This document shows, piece by piece, positions 10,587 through 57,229 of a stretch of DNA of 64,000 bases. This stretch comes from Actinomycetes bacterium (GTDB taxonomy: Bacteria > Actinomycetota > Actinomycetes > Actinomycetales > Dermatophilaceae). Every line of letters begins with the position of its first letter. Positions within the stretch are counted from its first letter, which is position 1. The stretch spans positions 3,033 through 67,032 of the forward strand of contig JAKPEG010000068.1 in assembly GCA_029552065.1 (NCBI GenBank). The letters are read 5' to 3'. A program made the position numbers and the translations under genes. The notes beneath the pieces are model-generated. The model was not told the origin of the DNA, searched no databases, and saw only the letters and a program-made list of their open reading frames with translations.

Positions 10587-10610
10587 GGTGCGCTCGGATC
10601 CGGTGCCGAC

Positions 10611-11234: not shown

Positions 11235-11354
11235 CTGCGCATGCTCCTTGTCCTCGCCGCGAGACTACCCGCTCACCGCGGGGCTCAGGGGCACCCCCAC
11301 GGCTGCGAGAATGGACCGACGGGGCCGCAGGAGCGCCCGGGAACGGGAGTCGGC

Positions 11355-39053: not shown

Positions 39054-39837
39054 GGTTGCTCCTCCTGAGGAAATCGATGTTGTGACTGGTCCATTCGGCT
39101 TCGACACGAGCGGTTGTTGCGGGGTCGCCCTGCCAGACCAACCAGTGCTCGATGATCTGGTTGACCCCCTTGCGCTCGGGTTGCACGGCGGCGATCATGC
39201 CGTCGTAGTCGAGCAAACCCTCGCCCAGGCGGGCCCCGGCATAGGTGAAACCCACCCAGCCGTCCTGACGGCTGAACGCAAAGTCCTTCACGTGCAGGTT
39301 CTTCACGTATGCCGCGGTGGTCGCCACCGTCTCGGTCGGCTTCTCCAGTGCGGCAACGGAGTTGGCTGGGTCGAGACAGATACCCAGGTGCTCCGAGCCG
39401 ACCTGCTCGACGATCTCGACGAGCCGCGCCGTCGGCACCTGCTCGTAGGTCTCCAGGGCGACGGTGACCCCGGCCGCCTCGTAGTCCGGCAGGAAGTTGC
39501 CGAGGAGGCCGACGGCCTCCGACGCCTCCGGGCGGGTGACCATACCCCGGACCAGTCGGGCGCCGGTGGCGCCCGCGAGGTCGAGGTAGTGGTGCATGTG
39601 TGCGGTGTCCAGACCCCGGGTGCCCAGTTCGAGTGCGATCCCGCGCTCCGCGGCATACCGACCGACCTCGGCCGCCTCGGCGACCGTCATCGTGTGCAGC
39701 GGCGGGTAGTCGCAGAACTGGAAGACGCGGACGCCCTGGGCGGCGCAGTCGTCGAGCAGGTCGCGCCAACGCATCGGCGTCGACGCCGTCTCGTGCCACC
39801 GCCAGAAATAGGCGTAGGTGCTCAGACCGATCGCCAT
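39046..39837 (-). CDS. sugar-phosphate isomerase/epimerase (xylose-isomerase-like TIM barrel)
   Basis: 263 aa with VALETYEQ..., LGICLDPANS and NLHVKDF motifs of the AP-endonuclease-2/xylose-isomerase-like fold. Confidence 0.84.
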   Translation of the reverse strand: MAIGLSTYAYFWRWHETASTPMRWRDLLDDCAAQGVRVFQFCDYPPLHTMTVAEAAEVGRYAAERGIALELGTRGLDTAHMHHYLDLAGATGARLVRGMVTRPEASEAVGLLGNFLPDYEAAGVTVALETYEQVPTARLVEIVEQVGSEHLGICLDPANSVAALEKPTETVATTAAYVKNLHVKDFAFSRQDGWVGFTYAGARLGEGLLDYDGMIAAVQPERKGVNQIIEHWLVWQGDPATTARVEAEWTSHNIDFLRRSNHV

Positions 39838-39838
39838 C

Positions 39839-41212
39839 TCAGTGACCGGCCGGGACGGACAGTTGCTCGCTGCCTTCGGCGGTGGTGACCCGGCCCATCT
39901 TCACGAGCACGAGCATGAGCACCCCGGAGAGGACCATGAGGGCACCGACCAGGAACATCGAGGTCTGGTAGTTGCCGGTGCCGTCCTTGAGCCAACCGGT
40001 CACGTAGGGGGCTGCGAAACCGGCGATGTTGCCGAAGGTGTTGATGAGGGCGATCCCGGCCGCTGCGGCCATCCCGCTGAGGAACTGGGTGGGCACGGTC
40101 CAGAAGACGGGCAGGGCGCTGAAGATGCAGCATGCCGTCACGGTGATGATGGCCACGGTGAGGGCCGGCGAGCCCGACTGCAGGGCAAGGGGGATCGAGA
40201 CGCCGCCGAGGAAGGCCGGGACGAAGATGTTGGCCGGCTTGACCCCACGCTTGGCGGCCATCGTCGTGACGATGTAGAGGACGATCGCCGCGGGCAGGTA
40301 AGGGATCGCCGTGATCCACGCCTTGCCCATGGTGTCGAGCTTCGTGCCGAACTGGGTCTCGAAGCCGCTGATGATCGTGGGCAGGAAGAAGGCCAGGGCG
40401 TAGAGGCCGTAGACGAAGCCGAAGTAGATGAGGGCGAGGATCCACACGCGACCGGAGCGGAAGGCGTAGGCGAGTCCGGTGTGCTTGCCCGAGCCGGCGT
40501 CACCGGAGGCGTTCTCCTTGGCGAGTTCACCGGTGAGCCAACTCTTCTCCGCGTCGGTGAGCCAGGGGGCCTTCTGCGGGTCGTCGACGAGGACGAACCA
40601 GGCGAGGATGCCGACGATCACCGCGGGGATGCCCACGCCGAGGAACATGACCCGCCAGCCCTCGAGGCCGAACAGGCCGTGCTGGTTGATGAGCCAGCCG
40701 GCCAGCGGGGCGCCGATGACGGTGGTGAGCGGCTGGGCGAGGTAGAAGAGGCCGAGGATCCGGCTGCGGTAGCGCGCCGGGACCCAGAGGCTGAGGAAGA
40801 GGATGGCGCCGGGGAAGAAGCCGGCCTCCATCACACCGAGCAGGAAGCGCAGCCAGGCCAACTGGGTGTAGCTGGAGACCCAAGTGAACAGCACCGCGAC
40901 CAGGCCCCAGGTGACCATGATCCGCGCGAGCCAGGTGCGAGCCCCGAACTTGTGCAGGGCCATGTTGCTGGGGATCTCGAGGATGATGTAGCCGGCGAAG
41001 AAGATGCCGGAGGCGAAACCGAACTGGGCCGCGGTGAGCCCGAGGTCCTTGGTCATCCCGTTGGGGCCGGCGAAGCCGATCGCCGTCCGGTCCAGGTAGT
41101 TGATGAAGAACATGAGCGCCACGAACGGCACGAGACGCGCGGACACCTTCTTGATGGCCGAGCGTTCGACTGAGCTGGCGGCCGGTGTCGGCGCCGGGAC
41201 GGTCTGGGACAT
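39839..41212 (-). CDS. MFS transporter (anion:cation symporter/ACS-like)
   Basis: 457 aa, 12 TM, with INYLDRTAIGFAGP and GWLINQHGLFGLEGWRVMF motifs typical of ACS-type sugar-acid/polyol carriers. It is the first gene of the cluster. Confidence 0.87.
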   Translation of the reverse strand: MSQTVPAPTPAASSVERSAIKKVSARLVPFVALMFFINYLDRTAIGFAGPNGMTKDLGLTAAQFGFASGIFFAGYIILEIPSNMALHKFGARTWLARIMVTWGLVAVLFTWVSSYTQLAWLRFLLGVMEAGFFPGAILFLSLWVPARYRSRILGLFYLAQPLTTVIGAPLAGWLINQHGLFGLEGWRVMFLGVGIPAVIVGILAWFVLVDDPQKAPWLTDAEKSWLTGELAKENASGDAGSGKHTGLAYAFRSGRVWILALIYFGFVYGLYALAFFLPTIISGFETQFGTKLDTMGKAWITAIPYLPAAIVLYIVTTMAAKRGVKPANIFVPAFLGGVSIPLALQSGSPALTVAIITVTACCIFSALPVFWTVPTQFLSGMAAAAGIALINTFGNIAGFAAPYVTGWLKDGTGNYQTSMFLVGALMVLSGVLMLVLVKMGRVTTAEGSEQLSVPAGH

Positions 41213-41269
41213 CTGCGCACTCCTCTTTGAGTAACGGCCACATCGATACTAGGTGACTCTATCCCTGAT

Positions 41270-41299
41270 TGGTCAACTGGTCAACCGGTCAACCGGTAC
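41270..41299. promoter_or_regulatory. triple direct repeat (T/C)GGTCAAC in the MFS/GntR divergent region (candidate GntR operator)
   Basis: TGGTCAAC TGGTCAAC CGGTCAAC CGGTAC, read directly at 41270-41299. It lies 58 nt upstream of the MFS start and about 110 nt upstream of the GntR start. Confidence 0.5.
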
Positions 41300-41407
41300 T
41301 CCTTTCGCTGATCGGCGTGGGCACGATGACGGTGCTACCGTCGCCGGGTGAGCCCCCATGCCCGCAGCGCCGCCGACGTCCCCGGACGTATTGCGCCGCT
41401 GCCCGCG

Positions 41408-42091
41408 ATGGCTGCGGTCGCCACGCCCGTGGCGACGGTGACCCGCCACCTGCTCGACGAACTCATGTCCGGCCGTTGGCGACCGGGGGACCGGCTGCCT
41501 CCCGAGCGCACCCTCGCGACCCAGCTCGGTGTCGGCCGGTCGGCGATCCGGGAGGCCGGCGCGGCACTGGAGATCCTCGGCGTACTCGAGGTGCGCCCGG
41601 GTTCGGGCACCTATGTCCGCGACGGCGCGAGCGGCCTGCTCCAGGAGACGCTCAGCTGGGGTCTGCATCTGTCGGTGGAGCGCACGGGCGATCTCATCGA
41701 GGTGCGTGAGGCCCTGGAGATCCAGGCCGCTCGGGCCGCCGCCGGACGGGTGACCGACGAGCAACTCGACCGGCTCCAGGGTCATCTCGCGGCGATGGCG
41801 GCCAACCTCGCGGACTACCCGGCATTCGTCCGTGCCGACATGCTCTTCCATGAGCAACTCGACGAGGCCGCCGGGAATGCGACCCTGCGCGACCTGGTGC
41901 GCTCGGTCCGCGCGCTCATCCGGGTGTGGGTAGAGCGAGCGCTCGACCAGGGCGGTCATGCCGACACGACGCTGCGCGAGCACGGGGCGATCCTGGCCGC
42001 CCTGCAGGCCCGCGATCCCGACCTCGCGGAGGCGGCGATGCGCAGCCACATGGTGTCCGCGCGTCAACGGCTCAGCGAAACGCTTGAGTGA
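41408..42091 (+). CDS. GntR family (FadR/FCD subfamily) transcriptional regulator
   Basis: MAAVATPVATVTRHLLDELMSGRWRPGDRLPPERTLATQLGVGRSAIREAGAALEILGVLEVRPGSGTYV, followed by an FCD-like helical domain. An alternative GTG start lies at 41348. Confidence 0.85.
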   Translation: MAAVATPVATVTRHLLDELMSGRWRPGDRLPPERTLATQLGVGRSAIREAGAALEILGVLEVRPGSGTYVRDGASGLLQETLSWGLHLSVERTGDLIEVREALEIQAARAAAGRVTDEQLDRLQGHLAAMAANLADYPAFVRADMLFHEQLDEAAGNATLRDLVRSVRALIRVWVERALDQGGHADTTLREHGAILAALQARDPDLAEAAMRSHMVSARQRLSETLE

Positions 42092-42137: not shown

Positions 42138-42956
42138 TCAGGACTCATCGAGGCGGGCGAGCAGGTCGGTGCGGGCGTCGAGGATCGCCGCGCGCAGTTC
42201 GGCCTCACGACCGTAGAAGCGCTGGGCCGGCATGGGCACGCTCACCGCCAGCGGGGCGTCGGCGCTCGGGTCGATGACGACCGCCACCGCGCAGATCCCC
42301 TCCGTGTGCTCCTCGCGGTCGTAGGCGACGCCCGCTTGGCGGATCTGGCGCAGCTCGCGGCGCAGGGCGGCGGAGGTCGTGAGGGTGTTCGCGGTGAGTG
42401 CGGCGGCGCGCGCGGGCAGCAGGTCCGTGCGCCCGCGCTGGGCGAGCACGTCGAGGATCGCCTTGCCGGGGGCGCACGAGTGCAGCGGGAAGGTCTCCCC
42501 GACGGCGCTCACCGCCTGTAGGCGATTGGGTGCCACCACCTGGTCGAGGAAACGCACGCTGTCGCCGTCGAGCACGGACAGGTCGACGGTCTCGCCGAGG
42601 CCGCGGGACAGCTCGGCGAGGGCCGTGTGCAGGGTGGCGAGCGAGTCGCGGTTGACGGCGGCAGCCATCCGGACGATCTCGGGTCCCAGCCGATAGCGCG
42701 AGCCGACTCGCGCAAGGCGCAGCATCCCCTCCGACTCGAGCGCACCGACGATCCGATGGACGGTCGTGCGGGCCAGGCCAAGGCGCTCGGCGAGCTCGGC
42801 CTGGGAGGCGCCGCCGGGCTCGCGGGCGACGGCCCGCAGGATGTCGGCGGCTCGGGCGATGACCTGTATGCCGTTCGCCGCGGCACCGTATGTCGTGGCT
42901 TCCGCCCCGGCACGGGGCGGCGGCGCGGCCGCCGCCCGTGCCGGCGCGGGCGTCAC
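42138..42956 (-). CDS. IclR family transcriptional regulator
   Basis: 272 aa. The HTH is QAELAERLGLARTTVHRIVGALESEGML, followed by an IclR effector domain. The GTG start overlaps the stop of the upstream gene (GTGA), making it the last gene of the long operon. Confidence 0.87.
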   Translation of the reverse strand: MTPAPARAAAAPPPRAGAEATTYGAAANGIQVIARAADILRAVAREPGGASQAELAERLGLARTTVHRIVGALESEGMLRLARVGSRYRLGPEIVRMAAAVNRDSLATLHTALAELSRGLGETVDLSVLDGDSVRFLDQVVAPNRLQAVSAVGETFPLHSCAPGKAILDVLAQRGRTDLLPARAAALTANTLTTSAALRRELRQIRQAGVAYDREEHTEGICAVAVVIDPSADAPLAVSVPMPAQRFYGREAELRAAILDARTDLLARLDES

Positions 42957-43642
42957 CAGGGGACCTTCGGAGTGACCATGTCCCTATGTTCGGCGATGTA
43001 GAGCGAAGGAAGGAAGCGCGAGAGGAAGGTGAACTCGTTGTAGGCGTGCTGGAGCAGCGCCCGGCCGAACTCGTCCGGGAAGATCTGGGCCATCTCGTCG
43101 GGGCTCGCGCCGGTCGCGGGCAGGTCGTAGCCGAGGAAGAAGTGGCTGCGCAGGACCAGCCCCCAGTCGGTGTCCCGGCCGATGTGCGCCATCCGGCCGC
43201 CGAAGATGGTGCCGTCGTCGGCGCGAGGCGGGTCCCAGCCCTCGTTGATCCGTGCGACGACCGCGCTCGTGATCGCTCCGCTCCCTCGCGCCGCGGCATA
43301 CGCCTGGGGGTCGAAGAATTCGTTCGGGTCGCGGAATTGGATGGTGAGGTCGGCCGCGGGCAAGCCCGTGAAGAACTCGGTGACGACGTGCTCGGAGCCC
43401 ACGTGCGTGTCGGGGCGCAGGTCGCCCTTCCAGTCGCTGAAGACGTGGTCGACCGGGTGCCACCAGATGTACTTCTGGGTGTCGCAGCGCCAGCGGAACC
43501 ACCATTCGAACATTTCTCCGGTGCAGCCGTGCATGTCGGTGCGGGCGGCCACGTGCAGGACGCCGTTGGGCAGCCGCTCGTAGCCGGTCTCGATCGGCAG
43601 CGGGGTGGGGTCCAGCAGCGGGACCATCTCCGGAATAGGCAT
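42953..43642 (-). CDS. hypothetical hydrolase, possibly DAPG/phloretin-hydrolase (PhlG)-like
   Basis: 229 aa. The CDS is well supported by GC3 and coupling. The family call is tentative. It rests on WWHPVDH, a downstream acidic residue and a C-terminal H-x3-E (LLQHAYNEF), whose spacing resembles the Zn ligands I recall for PhlG. Confidence 0.45.
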   Translation of the reverse strand: MPIPEMVPLLDPTPLPIETGYERLPNGVLHVAARTDMHGCTGEMFEWWFRWRCDTQKYIWWHPVDHVFSDWKGDLRPDTHVGSEHVVTEFFTGLPAADLTIQFRDPNEFFDPQAYAAARGSGAITSAVVARINEGWDPPRADDGTIFGGRMAHIGRDTDWGLVLRSHFFLGYDLPATGASPDEMAQIFPDEFGRALLQHAYNEFTFLSRFLPSLYIAEHRDMVTPKVPW

Positions 43643-43699
43643 GTCTGATCCTCTCGGTCGGGCGCAGGTCGGTGGTGGGCGGTCGGTTGGGGGTCGGGC

Positions 43700-44515
43700 T
43701 CAGCGGCGGGGAAGGCCGAGCAGGATCTCGGTCTCCTGCACCCCGGCCACGGGTCGGTCGAGCGCCCGGGCGAGGGCGACCGTGCGGGCGACGAGCGGGT
43801 CGTTGCCCTGGGTGAGCTCGCCCTTGCGCAGGTAGAGCGTGTCCTCCATGCCGGCCCGGGCGTTGCCGCCGAGGGCGAGCCCCATCGCGGTGAGCTCGAG
43901 GTTGGCCCGGCCGATCGAGATGATCTGCCAGATCGCGCCCTCGGGCAGCCGCCGGACGATCGTCATGAGGTTGTCGGCGGTGGCCGACGCCCCGCCGACC
44001 ACGCCGAGGACGATGCTGAACTGGAGCGGCTCGGCGAGCAGCCCCTCGTCGCGCAAGCGCAGGCAGGCGTCGAGGTGCCCCGTGTCGTAGATCTCCAACT
44101 CGGGCTTGACGTCCAGTTCGCGCATCCGGGCCGCGAGCCGGCGCACGCCGTCGGGCGGGTTGCGGAACTCGCCGACCCCGAAGCTCATCGAGCATGGGTT
44201 GAGGGTGGCCATCCGGGGGCGCAGCTCGACGAGCTTCTCGCGTTCCTCGAAGGGCACCGACAGCCCGACGCCGGTGGACATCTGGACGAGGATCGGACAG
44301 CGCTCGGCGATGAGGTCCATTGTCCGGCGGGCGATGTCGAGGTCGGCGGTCGGCCGGTCCTGTTCGTCGCGCAGGTGGATGTGCGCGACCGACGCCCCGA
44401 GCTCGTAGGCCCTCCCGACCGCCTCGGCGATCTCGGCGGGTTGGGTGGGCAGGCTCGGGTTGTCGGCCTTCGAGGCGATCGGGCCGGTCGGGGCGACGGT
44501 GATGACGGCGGTCAT
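43700..44515 (-). CDS. BKACE family enzyme (beta-keto acid cleavage enzyme, DUF849)
   Basis: 271 aa from ATG 44515, with GGAGGA SD. It reads MTAVITVAPTGPIASKADNPSLPTQPAEIAEAV...ASVAHIHLRD...GNARAGMEDTLY, typical of 3-keto-5-aminohexanoate-cleavage-type TIM barrels. Confidence 0.88.
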   Translation of the reverse strand: MTAVITVAPTGPIASKADNPSLPTQPAEIAEAVGRAYELGASVAHIHLRDEQDRPTADLDIARRTMDLIAERCPILVQMSTGVGLSVPFEEREKLVELRPRMATLNPCSMSFGVGEFRNPPDGVRRLAARMRELDVKPELEIYDTGHLDACLRLRDEGLLAEPLQFSIVLGVVGGASATADNLMTIVRRLPEGAIWQIISIGRANLELTAMGLALGGNARAGMEDTLYLRKGELTQGNDPLVARTVALARALDRPVAGVQETEILLGLPRR

Positions 44516-44537
44516 GGGTCCTCCTTCGGCGACGACC

Positions 44538-44900
44538 TCAGTCTGGCCTGGGCACGGCGATGACGACGAGCAACCGGGCATCGTCGGTGGACTCGTTGTC
44601 CACGCTGCGGACGGTGCCGCGTGGCATGTGCGCCGAGTCGCCGGCATACAGCGTGGTGGTGGTCTGCGTGTCGCCGTCCGTGACTCGCAGGACGAGTTCG
44701 CCTGCAAGACACACGTAGACGGTCTCGGCTGCGGTCGGTGCCGTGAGCGCGCGCGAGCCCGGCGGATAGACCGAATTCCCGACCCAGAAGGCCTCGGTCG
44801 GCCCCGCCTCGATCCCCTGCAGCCGGTTGGTCACCACCCCTTCGTGCAGGGGAGCGACGTATGCCGGTGCCTCGGCCGCCCGGGTGATCCGCGCGGCCAT
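44538..44900 (-). CDS. cupin domain protein
   Basis: 120 aa (MAARITRAAEAPAYVAPLHEG...VYVCLAGELVLRV...LYAGDSAHMPRGTVRSV). ATGA overlap with the cyclase gene. Confidence 0.72.
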   Translation of the reverse strand: MAARITRAAEAPAYVAPLHEGVVTNRLQGIEAGPTEAFWVGNSVYPPGSRALTAPTAAETVYVCLAGELVLRVTDGDTQTTTTLYAGDSAHMPRGTVRSVDNESTDDARLLVVIAVPRPD

Positions 44901-45730
44901 CACGAACCCGGCTCGAACCGGTAGCTGCCGCTGGGGTCGGTGATCGCGACGAGGCGCACGATGCAGCCGTCGCCGCCGACCCAGCGCCAGGGGAACGCGG
45001 CGAAGGTCACCCGCTTGCCGGTGACCGCGTCCAGGTCGCCGCCGATGTTCTCGAAGCCGTAGATCCCGTGGGAGAGGATCGCGTTGTGGCAGGGCTCCCA
45101 CCACGGGAAGTCCTCCTTCACCGGGCGGCCGGTGAGTTGCTCGTATTCCCTGCAGGCCCAGGGCAAGAGGCCCCCGGTCTCCTCGGCCGGGCCGTGCGGG
45201 CCGATCGCCGTGCCGAGCGGGTGGTCGAGGGCCTGGGTGTCGGCGCCGACCGCCTTCACCTTCTTGGACACGAACCACTCGCCGGCCTCCTTGTAGTAGC
45301 CGGGGGAGTAGGCGTAGTACTCGGCGCTGTCGGCGTATCGGTGATGCCAGCCGGTGTTGACGATGACGATGTCGCCCTCGCGCACGGGGGTGACCTGGCT
45401 GGCCCGCTCGAGGTCTTCGGCGGTGATGACCTCCCACTTGCCCTTGGGGATGTCCAGCACGACGCCGGTGCCGAAGAAGTTGCGCAGCGGGATCTCGTGG
45501 AGCAGCGGCGTGCCCTCGACGACGTGGCCGGGAGCGTCGATGTGGGTGCCCGAGTGCATGACCGTGGTGATCTTCTGGGTGAGCACGCGGCTCTTGGCCA
45601 TCCCGTGCAGCCGCTCGATCTTCACGTCCTCGAAGTAGGGCCAGGCCGGCACCCCGTGTCCCCACGGGTGGGACAGGTCGTAGAACTGCAGGCCGGCCTC
45701 GTTGGGGCCCTCGGCCCAGGTGTAGGTCAT
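44900..45730 (-). CDS. cyclase family protein (kynurenine-formamidase-like metal hydrolase fold)
   Basis: 276 aa. MTYTWAEGPNEAGLQFYDLSHPWGHGVPAWP...HSGTHIDAPGH carries the HxGTHxDxPxH motif. ATGA overlap with the ABC ATPase stop. Confidence 0.84.
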   Translation of the reverse strand: MTYTWAEGPNEAGLQFYDLSHPWGHGVPAWPYFEDVKIERLHGMAKSRVLTQKITTVMHSGTHIDAPGHVVEGTPLLHEIPLRNFFGTGVVLDIPKGKWEVITAEDLERASQVTPVREGDIVIVNTGWHHRYADSAEYYAYSPGYYKEAGEWFVSKKVKAVGADTQALDHPLGTAIGPHGPAEETGGLLPWACREYEQLTGRPVKEDFPWWEPCHNAILSHGIYGFENIGGDLDAVTGKRVTFAAFPWRWVGGDGCIVRLVAITDPSGSYRFEPGS

Positions 45731-47451
45731 GGGAGTTCCTTTCGATGGGTGGGGTGAGCGGGTCGGTCGTGCGACGGAGAAGCAGCAGGTATGCCGCGTG
45801 GTCCCGTGGGTCCGCCCCTCCCGTCGGCCGACTCGCCGACGTAGAGAGCCGCGAGGGCCGGATCCTTGGCGACGTCGGCAGCATTGCCCTGCAATGCGAT
45901 TCGGCCTTGGGCCAGGACATAGGCGCGGTCGGCGAGGGACAGGCCGCGGGCGATGTTCTGCTCGACGAGGACCATCGCGACCCCGGAGGAGCGCAGGGTG
46001 TCGAGCGCCTCGTAGAGCCGGTCGACGGCGATCGGCGCCAGTCCCAGGGAGATCTCGTCGAAGACGACGAGGCGGGGCTCGGACATGAGCGCCCGCCCCA
46101 CCGCGAGCATCTGCTGCTGGCCTCCGCTCATCGCCGTGCCGCTCTGGTTGCGCCGGTCGGCGAGGATGGGGAAGACGTCGTAGACCTGCTCGAGCCGGCG
46201 GGACCGCTCGGCCGCGGACGCGTCGCCGGCGCCGAGCACGAGGTTCTCCTCGACGCTCAGCGTGCCGAAGATCCGTCGCCCTTCCAGACATTGAGCCAAG
46301 CCCGCTGCCGTGACCCGGTCGGCCCGCCAGCCGGTGACGTCGGTGCCAGCGAAGCGGACCGTGCCGCCGGAAAGAGGCAGAGCCCCGGCCACGGCCCGCG
46401 CGAAGGTCGTCTTGCCGGCACCGTTGGCACCGAGCAGGGCGACCGTCTCGCCGGGGTGGACGACGAGATCGACCTCGCGCAATGCCCGCAGCCCGCCGTA
46501 GTCGACGGTGAGTCCGCGCACGTCGAGGAGCGGCTCTGCGGAAGTGGCCGTAGCCGGGGCAGTCCGTGGGGCGAGCGGTGGCGCACCTTTGCCCGAGTCC
46601 GACCCGGGTATGCCCGCAGCCAGACCCGGGCCCGGGTCCGCGGCGGGTGCGTGCTCGCCGGCCGCCGTGCCCAGGTAGACCGCGGCGACGGTGGGGTCGG
46701 CGAGCACGGCCCGGGTCGGGCCGAGGGCGATGAGCTTGCCGAAGTCGAGCACGGCCGTGCGGTCGCAGCAGGCGGTGATGACGTCCATCACGTGCTCGAT
46801 GACGAGCATGCCGTCGACCTCGGTCCGCAGGTCGAGGATGAGGTCGATGAGCTCGGCCGTCTCCGACTCGACCAGACCCGCGCCGATCTCGTCGAGCATG
46901 AGCAGCCGGGGCGACAGGGCCATCGCCCGCGCGAGCTCCAACCGCTTGCGGCGCAAGAGGGTGAGTCCGCCGGCGAGGGTGTCCGCGTGGTCGGCCAGGC
47001 CGGTCCGGTCGAGGATGCGCAGACACTCGGTCCGCCGAAGCGAGGTGCCCGCGCGGTGTCCGGAGTTGCTCGCTGCGAGCAGGAGGTTGTCCAGGACCGT
47101 CATCCGGGCGAACGGCCGCGGGATCTGGTGAGTGCGGCCGATCCCCAGACGCGCACGCCGGGCGGCGCCCTCTGCGCTCACGTCCCGGCCACCGAGCGCG
47201 ACGGTGCCCGCGGTGGGAGCGAGGGCGCCGCAGACGAGCCCGACGAGGGTGCTCTTGCCCGCGCCGTTGGGCCCGATCACGCCGACGACTTCACCGCGCG
47301 TCACGTCGAGGTCGACGCCGTCGAGGGCCGTGACGCCGCCGAAGCGCTTGCCCAGGCCGCGCACGGAGAGCACGGCGTCGCCCGGGCTCGCCTGCCCGGT
47401 GGCGACGGGAGCCGCGGTGGCTGCGGGCGGCATACCGGCGGGGGTGCTCAT
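45727..47451 (-). CDS. fused LivG-LivF-type ABC ATP-binding protein (two ATPase domains in one polypeptide)
   Basis: 574 aa. Domain 1 has GPNGAGKST with a degenerate signature region (LAGGLTLLRRKRLELARA) and LLMLDE. A roughly 40-aa Pro/Gly/Ala linker follows. Domain 2 has GANGAGKTT, MSGGQQQML and VVFDE. It ends in a roughly 40-aa basic/Pro-rich tail. Confidence 0.9.
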   Translation of the reverse strand: MSTPAGMPPAATAAPVATGQASPGDAVLSVRGLGKRFGGVTALDGVDLDVTRGEVVGVIGPNGAGKSTLVGLVCGALAPTAGTVALGGRDVSAEGAARRARLGIGRTHQIPRPFARMTVLDNLLLAASNSGHRAGTSLRRTECLRILDRTGLADHADTLAGGLTLLRRKRLELARAMALSPRLLMLDEIGAGLVESETAELIDLILDLRTEVDGMLVIEHVMDVITACCDRTAVLDFGKLIALGPTRAVLADPTVAAVYLGTAAGEHAPAADPGPGLAAGIPGSDSGKGAPPLAPRTAPATATSAEPLLDVRGLTVDYGGLRALREVDLVVHPGETVALLGANGAGKTTFARAVAGALPLSGGTVRFAGTDVTGWRADRVTAAGLAQCLEGRRIFGTLSVEENLVLGAGDASAAERSRRLEQVYDVFPILADRRNQSGTAMSGGQQQMLAVGRALMSEPRLVVFDEISLGLAPIAVDRLYEALDTLRSSGVAMVLVEQNIARGLSLADRAYVLAQGRIALQGNAADVAKDPALAALYVGESADGRGGPTGPRGIPAASPSHDRPAHPTHRKELP

Positions 47452-48404
47452 GCCGCAGCCTCCTCGCGGCGACCCCGACCCCCGAGGCGGGCGCGAACGA
47501 GCCCCCAGATGCCCTCACGGGCGAACCGGATGACGAGCAGGAGGATCACCCCGGTGATCGCGAGGTGGATCTCGGCATAGCCGCGCAGCACCTGCTCGAG
47601 GGTGACCGCGAAGACCGCCCCGATCCACGGGCCGACCCGTGTCGCGAGTCCGCCGATGATCGCCACCATGACGATGTCGACGGTCCACACCATCCCGAAG
47701 GAGCCGTTGGGCTCGACGATGCCCGAGTCGAGGGCCTGGACCGCACCCACGACGCCCATGAGGAAGGCCGAGATGACGAAGGCCCAGAGCTTGGCCCGGA
47801 AGGTGAATACCCCCATCGTCCGTGCGACGTCTTCGTCGTCGCGAATCGCATTGAGCCGCAACGCGAGTGGCAGCCTCAGAACGACGAGGACGACGGCAGT
47901 CGCGAGGAGCGCGGCACCGAGGGCGAACCAATAGAGCAGGTATGCCGGTGGCGCGGAGCTTTGCAGGAAGATCCCGCTCGTGCCGCCGAAGACAGGCGAG
48001 TTGACCATCCAGATCCGCAGGGCCTCGGCGAGCGCGAGGGTGCCGATGGTGAAGTAGAGGCCGCGCAGCCGGAACATCGCGGGACTCACGACGAGCGCGA
48101 ACAGTGCCGCGAGCAGGCCCCCGGCGAGGAAGGCGAGTGGCAGTGGCAGGCTCTGCAGCTGGTCGAGTTCGGCCATCGTGTAGATGCCGATGCCGACGAA
48201 CGCGGCCGAGCCGAGGGAGACCATCCCGGTGTAGCCGGCGAGCAGGTTCCATGCCGTGCCGAGGGCCGCGAGCTGGAGGACGAGGTAGCCGACCTGGAGT
48301 GCGTAGGTGCCCACGACGTAGGGCAGGAGGAAGAGCACCAAGCCGGCGACGGCGAGCAGGCCGAGCTCGACGGCGAGCGGGGGGAGCCCACGGATCCGGC
48401 TCAT
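47448..48404 (-). CDS. branched-chain-amino-acid-type ABC permease (LivM-like)
   Basis: 318 aa from ATG 48404, polytopic. ATGA overlaps occur at both ends. Confidence 0.87.
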   Translation of the reverse strand: MSRIRGLPPLAVELGLLAVAGLVLFLLPYVVGTYALQVGYLVLQLAALGTAWNLLAGYTGMVSLGSAAFVGIGIYTMAELDQLQSLPLPLAFLAGGLLAALFALVVSPAMFRLRGLYFTIGTLALAEALRIWMVNSPVFGGTSGIFLQSSAPPAYLLYWFALGAALLATAVVLVVLRLPLALRLNAIRDDEDVARTMGVFTFRAKLWAFVISAFLMGVVGAVQALDSGIVEPNGSFGMVWTVDIVMVAIIGGLATRVGPWIGAVFAVTLEQVLRGYAEIHLAITGVILLLVIRFAREGIWGLVRARLGGRGRREEAAA

Positions 48405-49285
48405 GCGGTTGCTCCGCGTCGGAACAGGCCCTGGGGGCGCACGGCGAGGATCACGAGGAACAGGACAAGCCCGACGAAGGTGCGGTAGCCGTCGCCGAGG
48501 GTGACCGCCCCGACGGATTGGAGGACACCGAGGGTGAGGCCTCCGGCGAAGGTGCCGTAGACGCTGCCGAGGCCGCCGAGCACGACGATGGTGAAGGCCG
48601 TGAGCAGGTATTCGGTGCCCGAGGTGGGGGTGAACGAGAAGCACAGGGCGATAAGGATGCCGCCGACGGCCGCGAGTCCGGCGGCCAGGGCATAGGTGAG
48701 CCCGTGGACGCGGCCGACCGCGACGCCGACGATCGACGCGGCGAGCGGGTCCTCGGCGCTCGCCCGCAGCTGCCGGCCGAAGGACGTGCGGGTCATCACG
48801 AGATAGACGGCAGTCGTGACAAGCAGGGAGATGAGGAAGCCGACGAGGTAGATCGTGGGGATCGCATAGCCGGCCAGGGAGATCGCCGTGCGCGTGTAGG
48901 GCCGGTCCAGCGATCGTGTGTCGCCGGTGAAGACCCGGATGAAGAGGTTCTGCAGGATGATCGAGAGCGCGAAGGCGGTGAGCAGCGGCCCCTCCTCGCC
49001 GCCGCGGGCCAGGGGGGCCAGCAGCGTGCGATGGAGCGGATATCCCACGGCCGCCACGACGAGGAAGACGAGGGGGAGGGCGAGCAGGGGGTCGAGTCCC
49101 CACGCGCTGAGGGCGACAAAGCCGAGATAGGAGCCGAGGACCACGAGTTCGCCGTGGACGAGGTTGACCAGGCGCATCACCCCGAGCACGAGCGAGAGCC
49201 CCAGGGCGCCGCAGGCATAGAGCCCTCCGAGCAGGACGCCGGAGATGAGGGCTTGCAGCAGGGCGTGCGGGTCTGGCAGCGTCAT
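48401..49285 (-). CDS. branched-chain-amino-acid-type ABC permease (LivH-like)
   Basis: 294 aa, polytopic (LVNLVHGELVVLGSYLGF...). Confidence 0.87.
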   Translation of the reverse strand: MTLPDPHALLQALISGVLLGGLYACGALGLSLVLGVMRLVNLVHGELVVLGSYLGFVALSAWGLDPLLALPLVFLVVAAVGYPLHRTLLAPLARGGEEGPLLTAFALSIILQNLFIRVFTGDTRSLDRPYTRTAISLAGYAIPTIYLVGFLISLLVTTAVYLVMTRTSFGRQLRASAEDPLAASIVGVAVGRVHGLTYALAAGLAAVGGILIALCFSFTPTSGTEYLLTAFTIVVLGGLGSVYGTFAGGLTLGVLQSVGAVTLGDGYRTFVGLVLFLVILAVRPQGLFRRGATA

Positions 49286-49323
49286 GGCGGTCCTCGGCTC
49301 CTTCCCTCAATGCGCGTGTCTGG

Positions 49324-50568
49324 TCACTTGGCCGGCATGGGGAAGAGCACCGAACCGGTGGCGCGGTCCTTGGGGTAGACCATGACCGGCTTGCCGCCCT
49401 GCCACTGGGAGTTGACCACCGAGATCTTCGCCGTGTGGTCGGCGGCGAACTTCACCGGTCCGACGGGGTATTCCTTGTCGGTCTTGGCGATGGCCGCGTT
49501 GACCGCGGTCGCGTCCGTGGATCCGGCGGCCGCGATGGCGTCCATGAGGACCATGGCGGCCGTGTAGGAGTCGGCGATGTGCTGGCTCGAGGTCTTGCCG
49601 GGGTTGTCCTTCTCCCAGGCTGCCTGCAGCTCCTTGGCACCCTTGAAGGGGAAGCTGGGGTCCCAGTAGGCACCGACCATGACGCCGTCGGCGAGAGTGC
49701 CCAGCGCCTCGGCATACTGCACGGGCTCGGCGCCCTTCTCGTTGACCATGACCTTGGGCGTCCAGCCGACGGCGGCCATCTGCTTGCGCAGCGAGATCGC
49801 CTGCGGCGTCACGGAATCGACGAGCAGGATGTCGGCGCCCGAGTCTTTCGCCTTTTGCACTGCCGCCGAGAAGTCGGTGTTGTCGACCGGGAATTCGACG
49901 TTGACCACCACTTCGTAGCCCGACGCGGCGGCGATGGCCGGCCAGATCTCCCGGCCGACCGCCTGGCCGTCCGGCCCGTTGTCGTGCAGGATCGCGACCT
50001 TCTTGTTCGTCGCGAGCCCGAGGCCGCTCATCGTGTCGAAGGAGAGCTTGGACAGCTCCGGGACGGAGAAGAAGATGTCCCAGGCCCAGGTCCACTTCTT
50101 CACCGAGGTGAACACCTCGAGTGGGTTGCAGCCCGCGACGAACGGGATCTTCGACTGGTCGGCGACCAACGCACCGGGGTTGACCAGGTCGGGGGTGCAC
50201 GAGCCGAGCAGGGCGATCGCCTTGTCGCTCGAGATGAGCGTCTTGATGTTCGTCGTCACCTGGTTGGGGTCGGTCTTGTCGTCGACGATCCGAAGGTCGA
50301 CCTTGCGCTTGACCCCGCCGACGCTCAGGCCACCCGCCGCGTTCACCTCGGCTGCGGCGTGGGTGTAGCCCCACTTGAGGAAGCTGCCGAAGCCGGCCAG
50401 CGGTCCGCTGAGCGGGACGCTCGCGCCGATGACGATCGGCTCGCTCGCGGCGGCGCTGCCGCTGCCGGCACCGGTGCTCGAGCTCGGTGGGGCACAGGCC
50501 GAGAGGGCACCGAGGGCGAGGGCGCACGAGGCGACTGCGGCAACGGACACGTTCCTGGTGCGGGTCAT
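49324..50568 (-). CDS. Liv/amide-family ABC substrate-binding lipoprotein
   Basis: 414 aa from ATG 50568, with GGAGAAGG SD. The lipobox is LGALSAC. A type-I periplasmic binding fold is indicated (IVIGASVPLSGPLAGFG...). ATGA overlap with the dehydrogenase stop. Confidence 0.87.
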   Translation of the reverse strand: MTRTRNVSVAAVASCALALGALSACAPPSSSTGAGSGSAAASEPIVIGASVPLSGPLAGFGSFLKWGYTHAAAEVNAAGGLSVGGVKRKVDLRIVDDKTDPNQVTTNIKTLISSDKAIALLGSCTPDLVNPGALVADQSKIPFVAGCNPLEVFTSVKKWTWAWDIFFSVPELSKLSFDTMSGLGLATNKKVAILHDNGPDGQAVGREIWPAIAAASGYEVVVNVEFPVDNTDFSAAVQKAKDSGADILLVDSVTPQAISLRKQMAAVGWTPKVMVNEKGAEPVQYAEALGTLADGVMVGAYWDPSFPFKGAKELQAAWEKDNPGKTSSQHIADSYTAAMVLMDAIAAAGSTDATAVNAAIAKTDKEYPVGPVKFAADHTAKISVVNSQWQGGKPVMVYPKDRATGSVLFPMPAK

Positions 50569-51512
50569 GCCTTCTCCTTCGGGTCTGTTCCGGACTCCGC
50601 CGCGCCCCTGATGGCGCGGTCGGTGAGTTGCGAGCGGACGTGGGCGGCCAGCCGGGCGCCCGCCCTTTCCCGATCCCCCGGCTCCCAGGTGAGGAAGCCG
50701 GAGCCGGACTTGGCCCCGAGCCGACCGGCGGCGACGAGATCGCGCAACAGCGGCGAAGGCCCGGGACGGTGGTCGATGGCGGGCAGCACGGCCTCGTGGA
50801 TCGCGAGGGTGAGGTCGAGGCCGACGAAGTCGGCGTTCTCGAGCGGCCCCATCTCGGCCAGGCGCAGCCCGATCGTGTTGCGCACGACGAGGTCGACGGT
50901 CTCGGCGTCGGCGATGCCCTCGGCGACGATCGCGATGGCCTCGCGCCAGAGGGCGTGTTGCATCCGGTTGCCGACGAAGCCGGGAACGTCGCGTTCGACC
51001 CGGACCGCGAGTTTGCCCAGACTGCAGAGCAATTGGACCGTCGTATCCATGGTCGTGGTCGACGTGTGGTGGCCGCGGACGACCTCGACGACCGGGATGA
51101 GACCGGGCGGGTTCCACCAGTGGGTGCCGACGACCCGCTCGGGTCGGGCGACCTGGGCGGCGATCGCCGTGACCGGCAGCACCGAGGTGTTCGTGGCCAG
51201 GATCGTCTCGGAGTCGGCGGCGGCGAGCTCGTGGAAGACCGCCTGTTTGACGGACAGGTCCTCCCGGACCGCCTCGGTGACGAAGGCCGCGCCGGCGGCG
51301 ACCTCGGCGAGCGAGCCGACGGGGCGCACGTGCGGGGCATACTCGGCGAGGGAGGCGACCGCCTCGGCGAGGGTCGCCTCGGAGACGTCGAAGAGCCGCA
51401 CCGAATGTCCGCCGCCGGCAAAGACGGCGGCGAGGGCGCGACCCATGAGACCGGCGCCGACGACGCCGACGGTGAGCGCGCCGGGTGAGGCGCCGGCCGG
51501 GATGGTCAGCAC
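50565..51512 (-). CDS. 3-hydroxyacyl-CoA dehydrogenase family protein (carnitine-dehydrogenase-like)
   Basis: 315 aa from GTG 51512. The Rossmann motif is VGVVGAGLMGRALAAVFAGGGHSVRLFD, followed by NTS, HWWNPP and PGFVGNRMQ motifs. It overlaps the SDR stop. Confidence 0.84.
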   Translation of the reverse strand: MLTIPAGASPGALTVGVVGAGLMGRALAAVFAGGGHSVRLFDVSEATLAEAVASLAEYAPHVRPVGSLAEVAAGAAFVTEAVREDLSVKQAVFHELAAADSETILATNTSVLPVTAIAAQVARPERVVGTHWWNPPGLIPVVEVVRGHHTSTTTMDTTVQLLCSLGKLAVRVERDVPGFVGNRMQHALWREAIAIVAEGIADAETVDLVVRNTIGLRLAEMGPLENADFVGLDLTLAIHEAVLPAIDHRPGPSPLLRDLVAAGRLGAKSGSGFLTWEPGDRERAGARLAAHVRSQLTDRAIRGAAESGTDPKEKA

Positions 51513-52342
51513 GCGGTGTAGCCGCCGTCGAGATAGAGCACCTGGCCGGTCATGAACGACGAGGCGTCGGAGAGCAGGTAGACGAGCGTGCCGGCGAAGT
51601 CGTCGGGTTCGGCGAACCGGCCGAGCGGGATCCGCGCGAACATTGCCTGCCGGACGGCCGTGCCGCGCTCGTCGTCGGCGAACATCCAGGCGGTGAGGTC
51701 GGAGCGAAAAACGGTGGGCGCCAAGGCATTCACCCGGATGCCCGCCGAACCCCATTCGGCGGCAAGGGTCTTGGCGAGCAGGTCGACGGCGGCCTTCGAC
51801 GGGCAGTATGCCGTGTAGCCGGCCGGGTGCCCGAGGCGCCCTCGCGTCGAGGAGACGAGCACGAGGCTGCCGCCGGTGCCCTGGTCGAGCCAGGCGCGTC
51901 CGGCCGCCTGGGCAACGAGCCAGGAGCCGCGGACGTTGGCGTCCATCACCTGCTCGAAGGTGTCGACCGGCATGTCGACGATCGGGGCGGTCTTGTTGAT
52001 GCCGGCCGCGACGAGGACTCCCCAGAGGGGGCCGTCGGCGCAGGCCGCGGCGACCATTGCGCTCGCGTCTTCCGGGGTGTCCGGACGCCGGGGCACGGTG
52101 GTCACCCGGGTGAGCGGACGCAGCTCCTGCGCGAGCGCTTCGAGGGCGTCGGTGCTGCTGCCCGTGAGGGTGAGGACGGCGCCTTCCTCGGCGAGGGCAC
52201 GGGCGCCGGCGGCACCGAGCGCACCCGTGGCCCCGACGACGAGAACCGAGCGCCCGGAGACGTCGAATCGGTTGCGCCGCAAGCTGGTTGGGGTGGGCGA
52301 GGAGTTGGGCGAAATGTCCACGTTGGGCTCCTGATTCCGCAT
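51506..52342 (-). CDS. SDR family oxidoreductase
   Basis: 278 aa from ATG 52342 (an alternative at 52393 has poor GC3). It has VLVVGATGALG, NAAG-like AAGIN and catalytic YCPSK. It is the first gene of the operon. Confidence 0.84.
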   Translation of the reverse strand: MRNQEPNVDISPNSSPTPTSLRRNRFDVSGRSVLVVGATGALGAAGARALAEEGAVLTLTGSSTDALEALAQELRPLTRVTTVPRRPDTPEDASAMVAAACADGPLWGVLVAAGINKTAPIVDMPVDTFEQVMDANVRGSWLVAQAAGRAWLDQGTGGSLVLVSSTRGRLGHPAGYTAYCPSKAAVDLLAKTLAAEWGSAGIRVNALAPTVFRSDLTAWMFADDERGTAVRQAMFARIPLGRFAEPDDFAGTLVYLLSDASSFMTGQVLYLDGGYTAC

Positions 52343-52456
52343 GGCGGGAACATTGTCCCGCGATGCGGTTGAGAGTAGAGTGGTCGCCGTCACACGTCAA
52401 GAGCCATCGGAGGCGACGTGCAGGTCCGGTGGCCGGTCGAGCAGGAGGGTCGGGCC

Positions 52457-53281
52457 ATGCGGATCGTCGTCATCGGGGACACGGGAATGAGCGGATCGGC
52501 GATCGCGGCCGAGTTGATCCGCCGGGGCCACGAGGTCACCGGGCTGTCTTCCGGTCGCAGCGGTGCACCGGCCCCCGAAGGGGTCGAACACCGGGACGTC
52601 GACGTCTTCGACGATCGCGCACTGCGCTCGGCGATCGCGGGGCACGATGCCCTTGTCTCGGCCTACTCCGGGGGCCACGGGCTCGAGGTCGACGTCTACT
52701 ACCGACACGCTGAGGGGACGCGGCGGATGATCAAAGCGGTCCGCGAGGCGCAGGTGCCCTACTTCCTGTGCATCGGCGGCGCGGCGTCGCTGCTCACCAA
52801 ACCGGGCGTGCAGTTCCTCGAGGACGAGCGGTGGCCGCGGTGGTTCTACGGCACCCAGCCACCGCTGCACCAGCGGTGGCTCGGCGACCTCATCCCGGCC
52901 CAGATCTTCCACGACTCGGCCGATCGCAAGGAGGCCGGCGTCGTGCCGCGCGGCGGGTCCGACCCGATCCTGGAGGAGCAGGTGAAGGACTGGGTGCACG
53001 TGCCCCTGCTCGAAGGCTGCCGTGTGGCGCTGGACCTGTTCGAGGGTCGCACGGACTTCCGCTGGTCGTTCCTGTCCCCGCCGTGGATGTTCCGCCCCGG
53101 ACCTGGCACCGGCTCCTACGAGCTGGGTGTCGACTACATGATCTTCGACGAGGGCATCCCCGCGGGGATCGACCTGCCCGACCTCGTGCTCGCGGTATGC
53201 GACGAAACCGAGAACCAGGTGCTCGTGCACAAGCACTGGACCTGCGCGGGTCGGCAGGCGAAGTACGCCGAGGATCTCTGA
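52457..53281 (+). CDS. NAD(P)H-binding (NmrA/atypical SDR-like) protein
   Basis: 274 aa from ATG 52457, with AGGAGG upstream. It starts MRIVVIGDTGMSGSAIAAELIRRGHEV. It is divergent from the SDR operon. Confidence 0.8.
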   Translation: MRIVVIGDTGMSGSAIAAELIRRGHEVTGLSSGRSGAPAPEGVEHRDVDVFDDRALRSAIAGHDALVSAYSGGHGLEVDVYYRHAEGTRRMIKAVREAQVPYFLCIGGAASLLTKPGVQFLEDERWPRWFYGTQPPLHQRWLGDLIPAQIFHDSADRKEAGVVPRGGSDPILEEQVKDWVHVPLLEGCRVALDLFEGRTDFRWSFLSPPWMFRPGPGTGSYELGVDYMIFDEGIPAGIDLPDLVLAVCDETENQVLVHKHWTCAGRQAKYAEDL

Positions 53282-53388
53282 GTCGATCCGGGCCGAGGTG
53301 CGCGGCCGTGGCGGGGAGCACCGCCTCGGTGCGCTATTCGCGGCGCGGTAGCGGGCGGCATACCGGATGGGCGACGTAGGCTCGACCC

Positions 53389-54144
53389 ATGGGTGTGCCC
53401 ACGCCTGCCGACCTCGCTGCCGCCTGGCTGCGGCCGCTCATCTTCCAGAGCCGCGGCACGCGGCTGCCGGCGTCGGAGACCGACGTCGAGCTTGTCGTGT
53501 CGGGGGTGACGCTGCGCGGCTGGGTGACCAACCCCGAGGCGGATCGGGCGCTGGTCTACTTCGGCGGCAACGCCGAGCAGGTGGGGCTCTACCGGGAGAT
53601 CTTCGCCTCGCAATTCCCGCGGCATGCAACCTATTTGCTCGCCTATCGGGGCTATGGCGCCAGCGACGGGCAGCCGTCCGAGAAGGCGCTCGTCGCCGAC
53701 GGGCTCGACATCGTCGACGAGGCAGCGCGGCAGCACCCGGGTGCGCCGGTCGCGGTCGTGGGCCGCAGTCTCGGCAGCGGGGTGGCCGCGCAGGTCGCCG
53801 CTCGCCGCCCGGCCCTGGGGCGGCTCGTGCTCGTCACGCCGTTCGACTCCCTCGCCGCGGTGATCCGCGACGGGATGAACGGTATGCCGATCGGTGGCCT
53901 CGTCGCGGACCGGTTCGACTCCGCCTCGGTCGCCTCCCGGATCGAGATGCCGACCCTCGTCCTGCGCGCCGGGCGCGACGACGTCATCCCGGCGGCCCGC
54001 ACGGCCGCACTCGTCGACGCCCTCCCGCCGCGTCTGGTCACGGTGCGGGATTTCCCCGACGCCGACCACAACTCGTTGTCGGCCGACGCGGCCTATTGGG
54101 CGGCCATCCGGCACTTCCTCGACGAGCCCGGCGAGGGTGGCTGA
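53389..54144 (+). CDS. alpha/beta hydrolase
   Basis: 251 aa. The nucleophile elbow is GRSLGSG, with a later Asp and DADHNS (His) completing the triad. Confidence 0.85.
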   Translation: MGVPTPADLAAAWLRPLIFQSRGTRLPASETDVELVVSGVTLRGWVTNPEADRALVYFGGNAEQVGLYREIFASQFPRHATYLLAYRGYGASDGQPSEKALVADGLDIVDEAARQHPGAPVAVVGRSLGSGVAAQVAARRPALGRLVLVTPFDSLAAVIRDGMNGMPIGGLVADRFDSASVASRIEMPTLVLRAGRDDVIPAARTAALVDALPPRLVTVRDFPDADHNSLSADAAYWAAIRHFLDEPGEGG

Positions 54145-56744: not shown

Positions 56745-56795
56745 GCCCTCACTCTCGCACAGCCGCGAAGGCTCGGATCGCGCCTGCGGGCCGCG

Positions 56796-57149: not shown

Positions 57150-57229
57150 CGTGGGTCCTCTCCGCGGCCCCGACGGTCGGGGCGACACCATGATGACGGG
57201 CGAGCGGGGCCCGGATCGACAGCCGCGAC

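Follow-up and report, generated by a model that had tools for sequence, protein, structure and literature searches.

Phloroglucinol degradation and the operon under study

Flavonoids and tannins are broken down via phloroglucinol (1,3,5-trihydroxybenzene) as a hub intermediate. A reductive route for it has been described in Clostridium scatologenes, whose four enzymes CsPGR, CsDPGC, CsTfD and CsTAL have been reconstituted in vitro (Zhou et al., mBio 2023, PMC10470551). Phloroglucinol reductase (PGR) converts phloroglucinol to dihydrophloroglucinol; dihydrophloroglucinol cyclohydrolase (DPGC), a Mn-dependent enzyme of the “cyclase” family, opens the ring to give (S)-3-hydroxy-5-oxohexanoate; TfD converts this acid to triacetate; and TAL, a beta-keto acid cleavage enzyme (BKACE), turns triacetate and acetyl-CoA into acetoacetate and acetoacetyl-CoA (PMC10470551). 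Here we compare with this system a stretch of 64,000 nucleotides from a member of the Dermatophilaceae (assembly GCA_029552065.1, contig JAKPEG010000068.1, positions 3,033 to 67,032), referred to below as the window. Eleven genes on its minus strand (42138-52342), called G1 to G11 in the order of their transcription, most probably serve the catabolism of phloroglucinol and, probably, of an acylated precursor of it, a reading to which we give a probability of about 0.85.

Relatives of this operon were known before. Rv1714-Rv1716 had been connected to the Clostridium cluster and to polyphenol degradation (Zhao 2018, PMC5894108), and homologous Mycobacterium clusters, some of them with a “phloretin hydrolase” of the DAPG_hydrolase family, have also been reported (PMC10470551). 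Since both papers had linked the mycobacterial clusters to this pathway, the assignment of the core is known biology. The window operon is the actinobacterial version of the known phloroglucinol cluster, extended by an importer of the HAAT family and a short PhlG-like hydrolase, and what is new resides in the cupin, the ligand of the importer, the substrate of the hydrolase and the actinobacterial BKACE subtype.

The route that we propose would begin with import of the substrate by a Liv-type ATP-binding cassette (ABC) system (G3-G6). The short PhlG-like hydrolase (G10) would then remove the acyl chain of an acyl-phloroglucinol, resembling phloretin, monoacetylphloroglucinol or 2,4-diacetylphloroglucinol, to yield phloroglucinol. 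G1, a short-chain dehydrogenase/reductase (SDR) acting as PGR, would use NAD(P)H to form dihydrophloroglucinol, which G7, acting as DPGC, would open by metal-dependent retro-Claisen hydrolysis to (S)-3-hydroxy-5-oxohexanoate. This free acid would be converted to 3,5-dioxohexanoate (triacetate) by G2, a TfD-like member of the 3-hydroxyacyl-CoA dehydrogenase (HADH) family. The BKACE G9 would finally turn triacetate and acetyl-CoA into acetoacetate and acetoacetyl-CoA, for entry into central metabolism. The cupin G8 would take part in an accessory or catalytic role, and the IclR protein G11 would probably repress the operon via a double palindrome located after the -10 box and before the first start codon. 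The scheme is built on homology, diagnostic residues, synteny and conserved motifs; the activities, the imported ligand, the substrate of the hydrolase, the pairing of regulator and operator and the direction of regulation are predictions drawn from these.

The four core enzymes

An earlier note on this DNA could not assign the operon to any described pathway. This turns out to be wrong, because SDR, cyclase, HADH-like enzyme and BKACE together make up the four-enzyme set published for C. scatologenes in 2023 (PMC10470551), and it is this combination, encoded on one strand within 8.6 kb, that places the operon in the phloroglucinol pathway. The mechanistic logic of the note, in which an enzyme of the HADH family makes a beta-keto acid that a BKACE cleaves with acetyl-CoA, was right, as was its suspicion of an aromatic substrate entering via a C-C hydrolase. 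Its amidohydrolase-like cyclase is better read as a retro-Claisen C-C ring-opening hydrolase, and nothing points to the beta-amino acid or amide that it considered as a substrate. The C. scatologenes locus itself was not among the loci retrieved in our PGR scan (see below), and the comparison relied on near relatives from Firmicutes and on the residue criteria given in PMC10470551.

The closest PDB sequence match of G1 is 5g4k/5g4l (E 9e-48, 38 % identity), entitled “Phloroglucinol reductase from Clostridium sp.”, and the C-terminal motif PTVFRSxLTxWM of G1 is invariant in the alignment from Clostridium to Actinobacteria and Proteobacteria. A single-sequence AlphaFold2 (AF2) model of G1 was poor, with a predicted local distance difference test score (pLDDT) of 47, and was used only for reading the PDB titles of 5g4k/5g4l. 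G7 is 73–93 % identical to its actinobacterial and proteobacterial homologues and 76 % identical to the M. tuberculosis protein; a UniRef50 cluster of M. tuberculosis, M. canettii and Streptomyces is listed among the DPGCs in Data set S3 of PMC10470551. In CsDPGC, Trp20 and Tyr22 stand in place of the substrate residues of isatin hydrolase (PMC10470551), and they correspond to W30 and Y32 of G7, within an invariant WPYF. The metal motif HxGTHxDAPxH is conserved in all 23 aligned cyclase sequences, G7 included.

Aligned with C. butyricum HBD (4kug), G2 retains the catalytic residues Ser117, His138 and Asn188. The CoA-contacting Asn221 is replaced by Arg, and Lys56 falls in a shortened loop (Tyr), where the alignment is of low confidence. 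Loss of the CoA-contacting Lys56 and Asn221 with retention of the catalytic residues is the pattern described for CsTfD (PMC10470551). The second PDB match of G2, 4om8, is a dehydrogenase of a free, non-CoA carboxylic acid. G9 finds its top PDB match in Kce (2y7d), the BKACE of lysine fermentation, with which it shares the TIM-barrel fold, aligned HxH and Glu residues of the zinc site and the logic of acetyl-CoA-dependent cleavage of a beta-keto acid. The two differ at Glu14 of Kce, which binds the 5-amino group and is Ile13 in G9; CsTAL has Trp16 at this position (PMC10470551).

Kce is also the top NCBIfam match of G9, and Liv-type importers usually transport amino acids or amides. A carnitine-like or lysine-fermentation-like route, in which the dehydrogenase and the BKACE would act on an imported beta-hydroxy or beta-amino acid, can draw on both facts. 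We nevertheless regard such a route as extremely unlikely, and both variants were rejected on NCBIfam cutoffs and on the residue at Glu14. G2 stays below the carnitine dehydrogenase models (NF005716, 126 against a cutoff of 592; NF005471, 107 against 414), as does G9 below the Kce equivalog (NF052387, 267 against 382). Moreover, the gene context is unrelated to that of Kce: the partners needed for lysine fermentation (aminomutases, 3,5-diaminohexanoate dehydrogenase) are absent from the operon, and the conserved partners are instead PGR, DPGC and the PhlG-like hydrolase. The dehydrogenase and the BKACE thus lie outside the carnitine subfamilies, and the genes around them are co-conserved and not chance neighbours.

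Distribution and gene order

A scan with the cyclase alignment, restricted to one genome per species, gave 80 loci. A further 80 loci, nearly all from Firmicutes, came from a second scan, for which a PGR alignment with 5g4k at its head was used. The eleven window proteins were compared to both sets by tblastn. The full four-enzyme set is present in 54 cyclase-anchored and 46 PGR-anchored loci, and the gene set is found again in Actinobacteria (among them Mycobacterium), Proteobacteria and Firmicutes. In the full-set loci of Actinobacteria, many of them from Mycobacterium, the order SDR-HADH-cyclase-cupin-BKACE-IclR is the rule, and a metagenome-assembled genome (MAG) of the Micromonosporaceae (L001) has the complete eleven-gene layout. 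Proteobacteria have the order cyclase-(cupin)-SDR-HADH-BKACE, often followed by a G3-type ABC system (binder 54–62 % identical) and a short hydrolase (55–63 %). In Firmicutes, where the anchor is a true PGR, the order is cupin-PGR-HADH-cyclase-BKACE, and the neighbours of PGR are 28–47 % identical to G2, 37–43 % to G7 and, in all but one locus, 30–38 % to G9. The genes flanking the operon in the window stand beside the cluster in no other locus compared, which delimits the unit to G1-G11. In 20 metagenomes from activated sludge, sludge and wastewater, 92–95 % of the words sampled from the region itself were present.

The mycobacterial cluster of the Rv1714-Rv1719 type (SDR, FadB3-like, cyclase, cupin Rv1717, BKACE and IclR; numbers as in H37Rv) shares with the window the gene order, a dual palindrome upstream of the SDR gene and, for loci such as L010, identities of 46–86 %. 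It lacks two insertions of the window operon, namely the four ABC importer genes that follow the HADH gene and precede the cyclase gene, and the gene of the short PhlG-like hydrolase ahead of the IclR gene. With the C. scatologenes cluster the window operon has in common the four enzyme families and their diagnostic residues, as well as a cupin gene, which in C. scatologenes adjoins the PGR gene, a transporter and a regulator. However, identities are ~35–45 %, the window cyclase is devoid of two insertions of the Firmicute enzymes and the BKACE belongs to another subtype. The transporter is a HAAT ABC system and not of the major facilitator superfamily (MFS) type, the regulator of the window operon is an IclR protein, thiolase and CoA-transferase genes are missing from the operon, and the organism is a high-GC actinobacterium of activated sludge that is probably aerobic.

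A minimal version occurs in many Mycobacterium loci, with an SDR gene followed directly by cyclase and IclR genes (~9100-11700) and without HADH, cupin or BKACE genes nearby (L011, L015, L019, L020, L022, L025-L029, L031, L033, L037 and L042). It may represent a pathway that would stop at 3-hydroxy-5-oxohexanoate, or a decayed cluster. Rubrivivax gelatinosus is a reported phloroglucinol degrader (PMC10470551). In Rubrivivax (L057, L064) a 74 % identical cyclase is accompanied by a divergent IclR gene; since no homologue of the SDR, the HADH or the BKACE is encoded within 10 kb of the cyclase gene, the pathway genes there are either dispersed or different.

Predicted import of the substrate and release of phloroglucinol

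The four genes between those of the HADH-like enzyme and the cyclase encode all parts of a HAAT (Liv/Urt-type) importer: a Peripla_BP_6 binder, two BPD_transp_2 permeases and two ATPase domains. No Liv/Urt model of NCBIfam passes its cutoff for the binder or the permeases, and for the binder no NCBIfam model of any kind does; only UrtE (TIGR03410) passes, narrowly, on the LivF-like half of G6. Orthologues of G3 with 52–78 % identity are found in eight phloroglucinol clusters (L001, L023, L024, L043, L050, L055, L059 and L066). A second, unrelated HAAT ABC system lies beside the cluster in eight loci (L004, L006, L007, L044, L061, L079, L132 and L156), and for this reason HAAT importers appear to have been recruited at least twice.

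G10 matches the DAPG_hydrolase profile PF18089 over its whole length (141.7 bits against a gathering score of 22.7, profile positions 7-222 of 223), a domain that it shares with PhlG, the 2,4-diacetylphloroglucinol hydrolase (3HWP), and with the phloretin hydrolase of Mycobacteroides abscessus (5XE5). In a distant alignment (E ~1e-14), candidate metal-binding positions of G10 line up with 5xe5, namely the His of WHP, the Glu of NE(Y/F) and the C-terminal H-x3-E. The zinc ligands of PhlG are two His and two Glu. Homologues of 229–233 amino acids with 55–75 % identity are present in ten loci. G10 probably releases phloroglucinol from an imported acyl-phloroglucinol.

Five other loci (L001, L023, L055, L059 and L066) combine a G10-type hydrolase with a G3-type ABC system, and this co-occurrence suggests that the importer ligand is the substrate of the hydrolase or phloroglucinol itself. 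Of the three other loci with the ABC system, L043 and L050 end a few kb past the transporter genes, so that the absence of a hydrolase there is uncertain. One of the five, an actinobacterial MAG (L023), has two tandem short PhlG-like hydrolase genes next to its G3-type ABC system (~12694-14200); no HADH or BKACE match in this locus lies above the coverage filter.

Weighing the assignment

A number of observations count against the phloroglucinol assignment. The operon enzymes are only ~35–45 % identical to the biochemically characterised Firmicute-type enzymes, and an assay of any actinobacterial member was not found in the searchable literature. The Arg behind the second beta-strand of 5g4k is missing from G1 (TGRNEKK, against TGSSTDA in G1), whose cofactor preference may consequently differ. 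G9 reaches 158.6 bits with the equivalog for 3,5-dioxohexanoate:acetyl-CoA acetone transferase (NF053538), whose cutoff is 430, and we infer its TAL role from context and from the substitution of Glu14, not from orthology to an assayed enzyme. The PDB relatives of G3 are all distant (best E 1e-19) and none is informative on the ligand; the aromatic-acid binders among them match at E ~1e-8 to 1e-10 only and were rejected as uninformative. G10 is distant from both 5xe5 (E 2e-14) and 3hwp (E 1.5e-11), is without their N-terminal ~60 residues, aligning from their residue ~61 or ~75, and fails the PhlG equivalog NF047887 (51.7 bits against 600). Finally, the operon has low, even coverage from metatranscriptome contigs (X25-X28), which join up most of its junctions; as they also span the divergent promoter and carry no strand information, they do not show co-transcription.

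The failure of G9 at NF053538 has to be seen in the light of the fact that three BKACE types occupy the same place in the phloroglucinol clusters of different phyla. The window type has 271 amino acids and is 74–86 % identical within Actinobacteria. A proteobacterial type of ~310 amino acids (e.g., L044 17667-18551 and L059 12898-13785) is the only one to pass the model, with 523–531 bits. The Firmicute type of ~275 amino acids (L094, L144) has the CsTAL motif TGAW and fails as well, which indicates that the model is narrower than the activity.

It is conceivable that the same four-step chemistry operates on a different 1,3-diketone or polyhydroxy aromatic, for example a resorcinol-type compound or a phloroglucinol with methyl or acyl groups, and that phloroglucinol is not the physiological substrate. 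An identity of about 40 % to the characterised enzymes would allow for this, the separate BKACE subtype with its sub-cutoff score fits it, the actinobacterial and proteobacterial cyclases lack the two insertions seen in alignments of Firmicute DPGCs, and the hydrolase and the importer may have another specificity. However, the substrate-recognising residues of DPGC and TAL are either retained or exchanged as expected, proteobacterial cyclases of the same type (73–76 % identical) accompany a BKACE that does pass the 3,5-dioxohexanoate equivalog, and the phloroglucinol degrader R. gelatinosus has its 74 % identical cyclase. We therefore judge another substrate to be unlikely, and retain phloroglucinol.

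Operon structure

The window has ~72 % G+C, and gene boundaries were checked by profiles of G+C at third codon positions (GC3) of candidate minus-strand open reading frames, domains by Pfam (Table 1). GC3 climbs sharply at the boundaries given in the earlier note, and its eleven named domain assignments were all confirmed in this way. The sequence also contains all seven start/stop overlaps that it listed. At the other three junctions the genes are separated by 38, 22 and 57 nt, and each of these junctions has a purine-rich ribosome-binding site. The BKACE gene starts at ATG 44515, preceded by GAAGGAGG, to give 271 amino acids, and the longer reading frame from a TTG is not used. Gene callers start the cupin at ATG 44900 (P0121, 120 amino acids), so that it overlaps its neighbour by 1 nt (TGATG). 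For the SDR, GTG 52321, which has an AGGAG site ahead of it, is a more likely start than ATG 52342.

Table 1. Features of the predicted phloroglucinol operon and its surroundings in the window
Feature	Coordinates	Strand	Basis or remark
G1, SDR, predicted PGR	51506-52342	-	Pfam adh_short_C2, 156 bits
G2, HADH family, predicted (S)-3-hydroxy-5-oxohexanoate dehydrogenase (TfD type), free acid	50565-51512	-	Pfam 3HCDH_N + 3HCDH
G3, HAAT-family lipoprotein substrate-binding protein	49324-50568	-	Pfam Peripla_BP_6, 158 bits; lipobox LSAC
G4, LivH/UrtB-type permease	48401-49285	-	Pfam BPD_transp_2, 123 bits
G5, LivM/UrtC-type permease	47448-48404	-	Pfam BPD_transp_2, 104 bits
G6, fused LivG-LivF-type double ATPase, 574 amino acids	45727-47451	-	two ABC_tran; LivG-like residues 26-262, LivF-like 308-539
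G7, cyclase family, predicted Mn-dependent DPGC	44900-45730	-	Pfam Cyclase PF04199, 135 bits
G8, small monocupin without canonical His ligands	44538-44900/44903	-	Pfam Cupin_2
G9, BKACE, predicted triacetate (3,5-dioxohexanoate):acetyl-CoA cleavage enzyme, actinobacterial subtype	43700-44515	-	Pfam PF05853, 288 bits
G10, short (229 amino acids) DAPG_hydrolase-family C-C hydrolase, predicted to free phloroglucinol from acyl-phloroglucinol	42953-43642	-	Pfam PF18089
G11, IclR-family regulator, last operon gene	42138-42956	-	Pfam IclR_C + HTH_IclR
Overlap junction GTGCTGA	51506-51512	-	read in sequence
Overlap junctions ATGA	50565-50568, 48401-48404, 47448-47451, 45727-45730	-	read in sequence
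Overlap junctions GTGA	44900-44903, 42953-42956	-	read in sequence
Promoter-like site, -35 TTGACG (52400-52395), 17-nt spacer, -10 TACTCT (52377-52372)	52372-52400	-	position and sequence
Double palindrome AACCGCATCGCGGGA-CAATGT-TCCCGCCATGCGGAA	52335-52370	.	inverted-repeat search; twice TCCCG-N5-CGGGA, 6-nt spacer
PGDH_C-domain dehydrogenase	38196-39107	-	downstream unit
Xylose-isomerase-like TIM-barrel protein	39046-39837	-	downstream unit
MFS transporter	39839-41212	-	downstream unit; promoter-like site 41284-41256
GntR/FCD regulator	41348-42091	+	convergent with G11; downstream unit
NmrA/NAD_binding_10 protein, then alpha/beta hydrolase	52457-54144	+	divergent from operon
Pnkp-type RNA repair protein, 978 amino acids, and adjacent 366-amino-acid protein	55644-60166	-	Pnkp-type protein with kinase, phosphatase and PNKP ligase domains; 527 bits

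The three junctions without overlap and the unstranded transcript evidence leave some room for the idea that the eleven genes represent several independent transcription units, or chance neighbours, and not one functional system. We consider this very improbable: every gene is on the same strand with gaps of at most 57 nt, no convincing terminator was found in a search within the operon, and the flanks are not conserved. In addition, the full eleven-gene layout recurs in L001 and its modules recur across phyla. The earlier reading of a single operon is upheld. Dozens of genomes belonging to three phyla share the gene set in synteny.

The four downstream genes listed in Table 1 (38196-42091) form an unrelated unit. 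On the other side, neither the NmrA/NAD_binding_10 protein, which probably starts at ATG 52457 (GGAGG ahead) and not at 52418, nor the alpha/beta hydrolase is conserved beside the cluster elsewhere. The gene of the Pnkp-type protein, further away, is adjoined by that of a 366-amino-acid protein with a weak NYN-domain match.

A candidate operator for the IclR regulator

An IclR homologue occupies the same position in 38 of 42 actinobacterial loci. Upstream of G1 a putative promoter, proposed from its position and sequence and not listed by a consensus promoter scan, is followed by two palindromes separated by 6 nt, which constitute the best dual-motif match in the whole window (17 of 20 positions). 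In ~27 actinobacterial loci the same 15+6+15 architecture lies between -64 and +28 nt relative to the start of the SDR gene. As a single palindrome is not rarer in the window than expected by chance, the weight rests on the paired arrangement and its conserved position. The double palindrome is probably the operator of the cluster's IclR regulator, both this pairing and the direction of regulation being predictions.

In L004, L006 and L007 the dual palindrome also precedes the second, unrelated HAAT ABC system (2347-2382, 2369-2404 and 2400-2435, respectively), the binder of which is ~26 % identical to G3; here it lies 5.8 kb upstream of the SDR gene. The recurrence of the motif at this second system suggests a single IclR regulon with two promoters in these loci.

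The cupin

A homologue of G8 is present in each of the cyclase-anchored loci that hold all four enzymes (23 of 23 and 31 of 31, i.e., all 54 complete non-Firmicute clusters) and in 19 of the 46 Firmicute loci. In C. scatologenes the gene of the homologue, CSCA_1081, adjoins that of CsPGR (CSCA_1082) and is close to that of CsDPGC (CSCA_1083). CSCA_1081 was detected by gel-band proteomics in PMC10470551, in the text of which the word “cupin” appears nowhere. The canonical cupin His residues are replaced in the alignment of the family, and Glu59, Arg98 and Asn102 are invariant. A PDB sequence search gave only TTHA0104 (E 3.5e-4), and a Foldseek search with the AF2 model (pLDDT 91) gave generic monocupins (TM1459 and similar) with no functional lead.

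NCBIfam calls this family “beta-D-galactosidase” after the M. tuberculosis homologue Rv1717. The name rests on one paper, based on 1-h assays with p-nitrophenyl-galactoside, in which the neighbouring genes are not mentioned. The conserved context of the G8/Rv1717 family argues for a role in phloroglucinol catabolism. Since the four-enzyme pathway runs in vitro without a cupin, an accessory role is likely. One tentative proposal, to which we would give slightly less than even odds, is that the His-less cupin is a fifth pathway component, for instance a tautomerase or isomerase that works without metal, or a protein that binds an enolate or carboxylate intermediate, and that the Liv-type HAAT systems are dedicated importers of phloroglucinol or its acyl derivatives in aerobic bacteria. 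If the cupin is indeed such a component, the published “beta-galactosidase” assignment of Rv1717 would miss its main role.

Significance

As read here, the operon is an example of an oxygen-independent reductive phloroglucinol pathway from a high-GC actinobacterium frequent in activated sludge. The operon supplies this predicted pathway with an importer, a C-C hydrolase acting upstream of it and a recognisable candidate operator, and having these together makes the annotation of such clusters straightforward. The M. tuberculosis homologue of the universally linked cupin carries a doubtful annotation.

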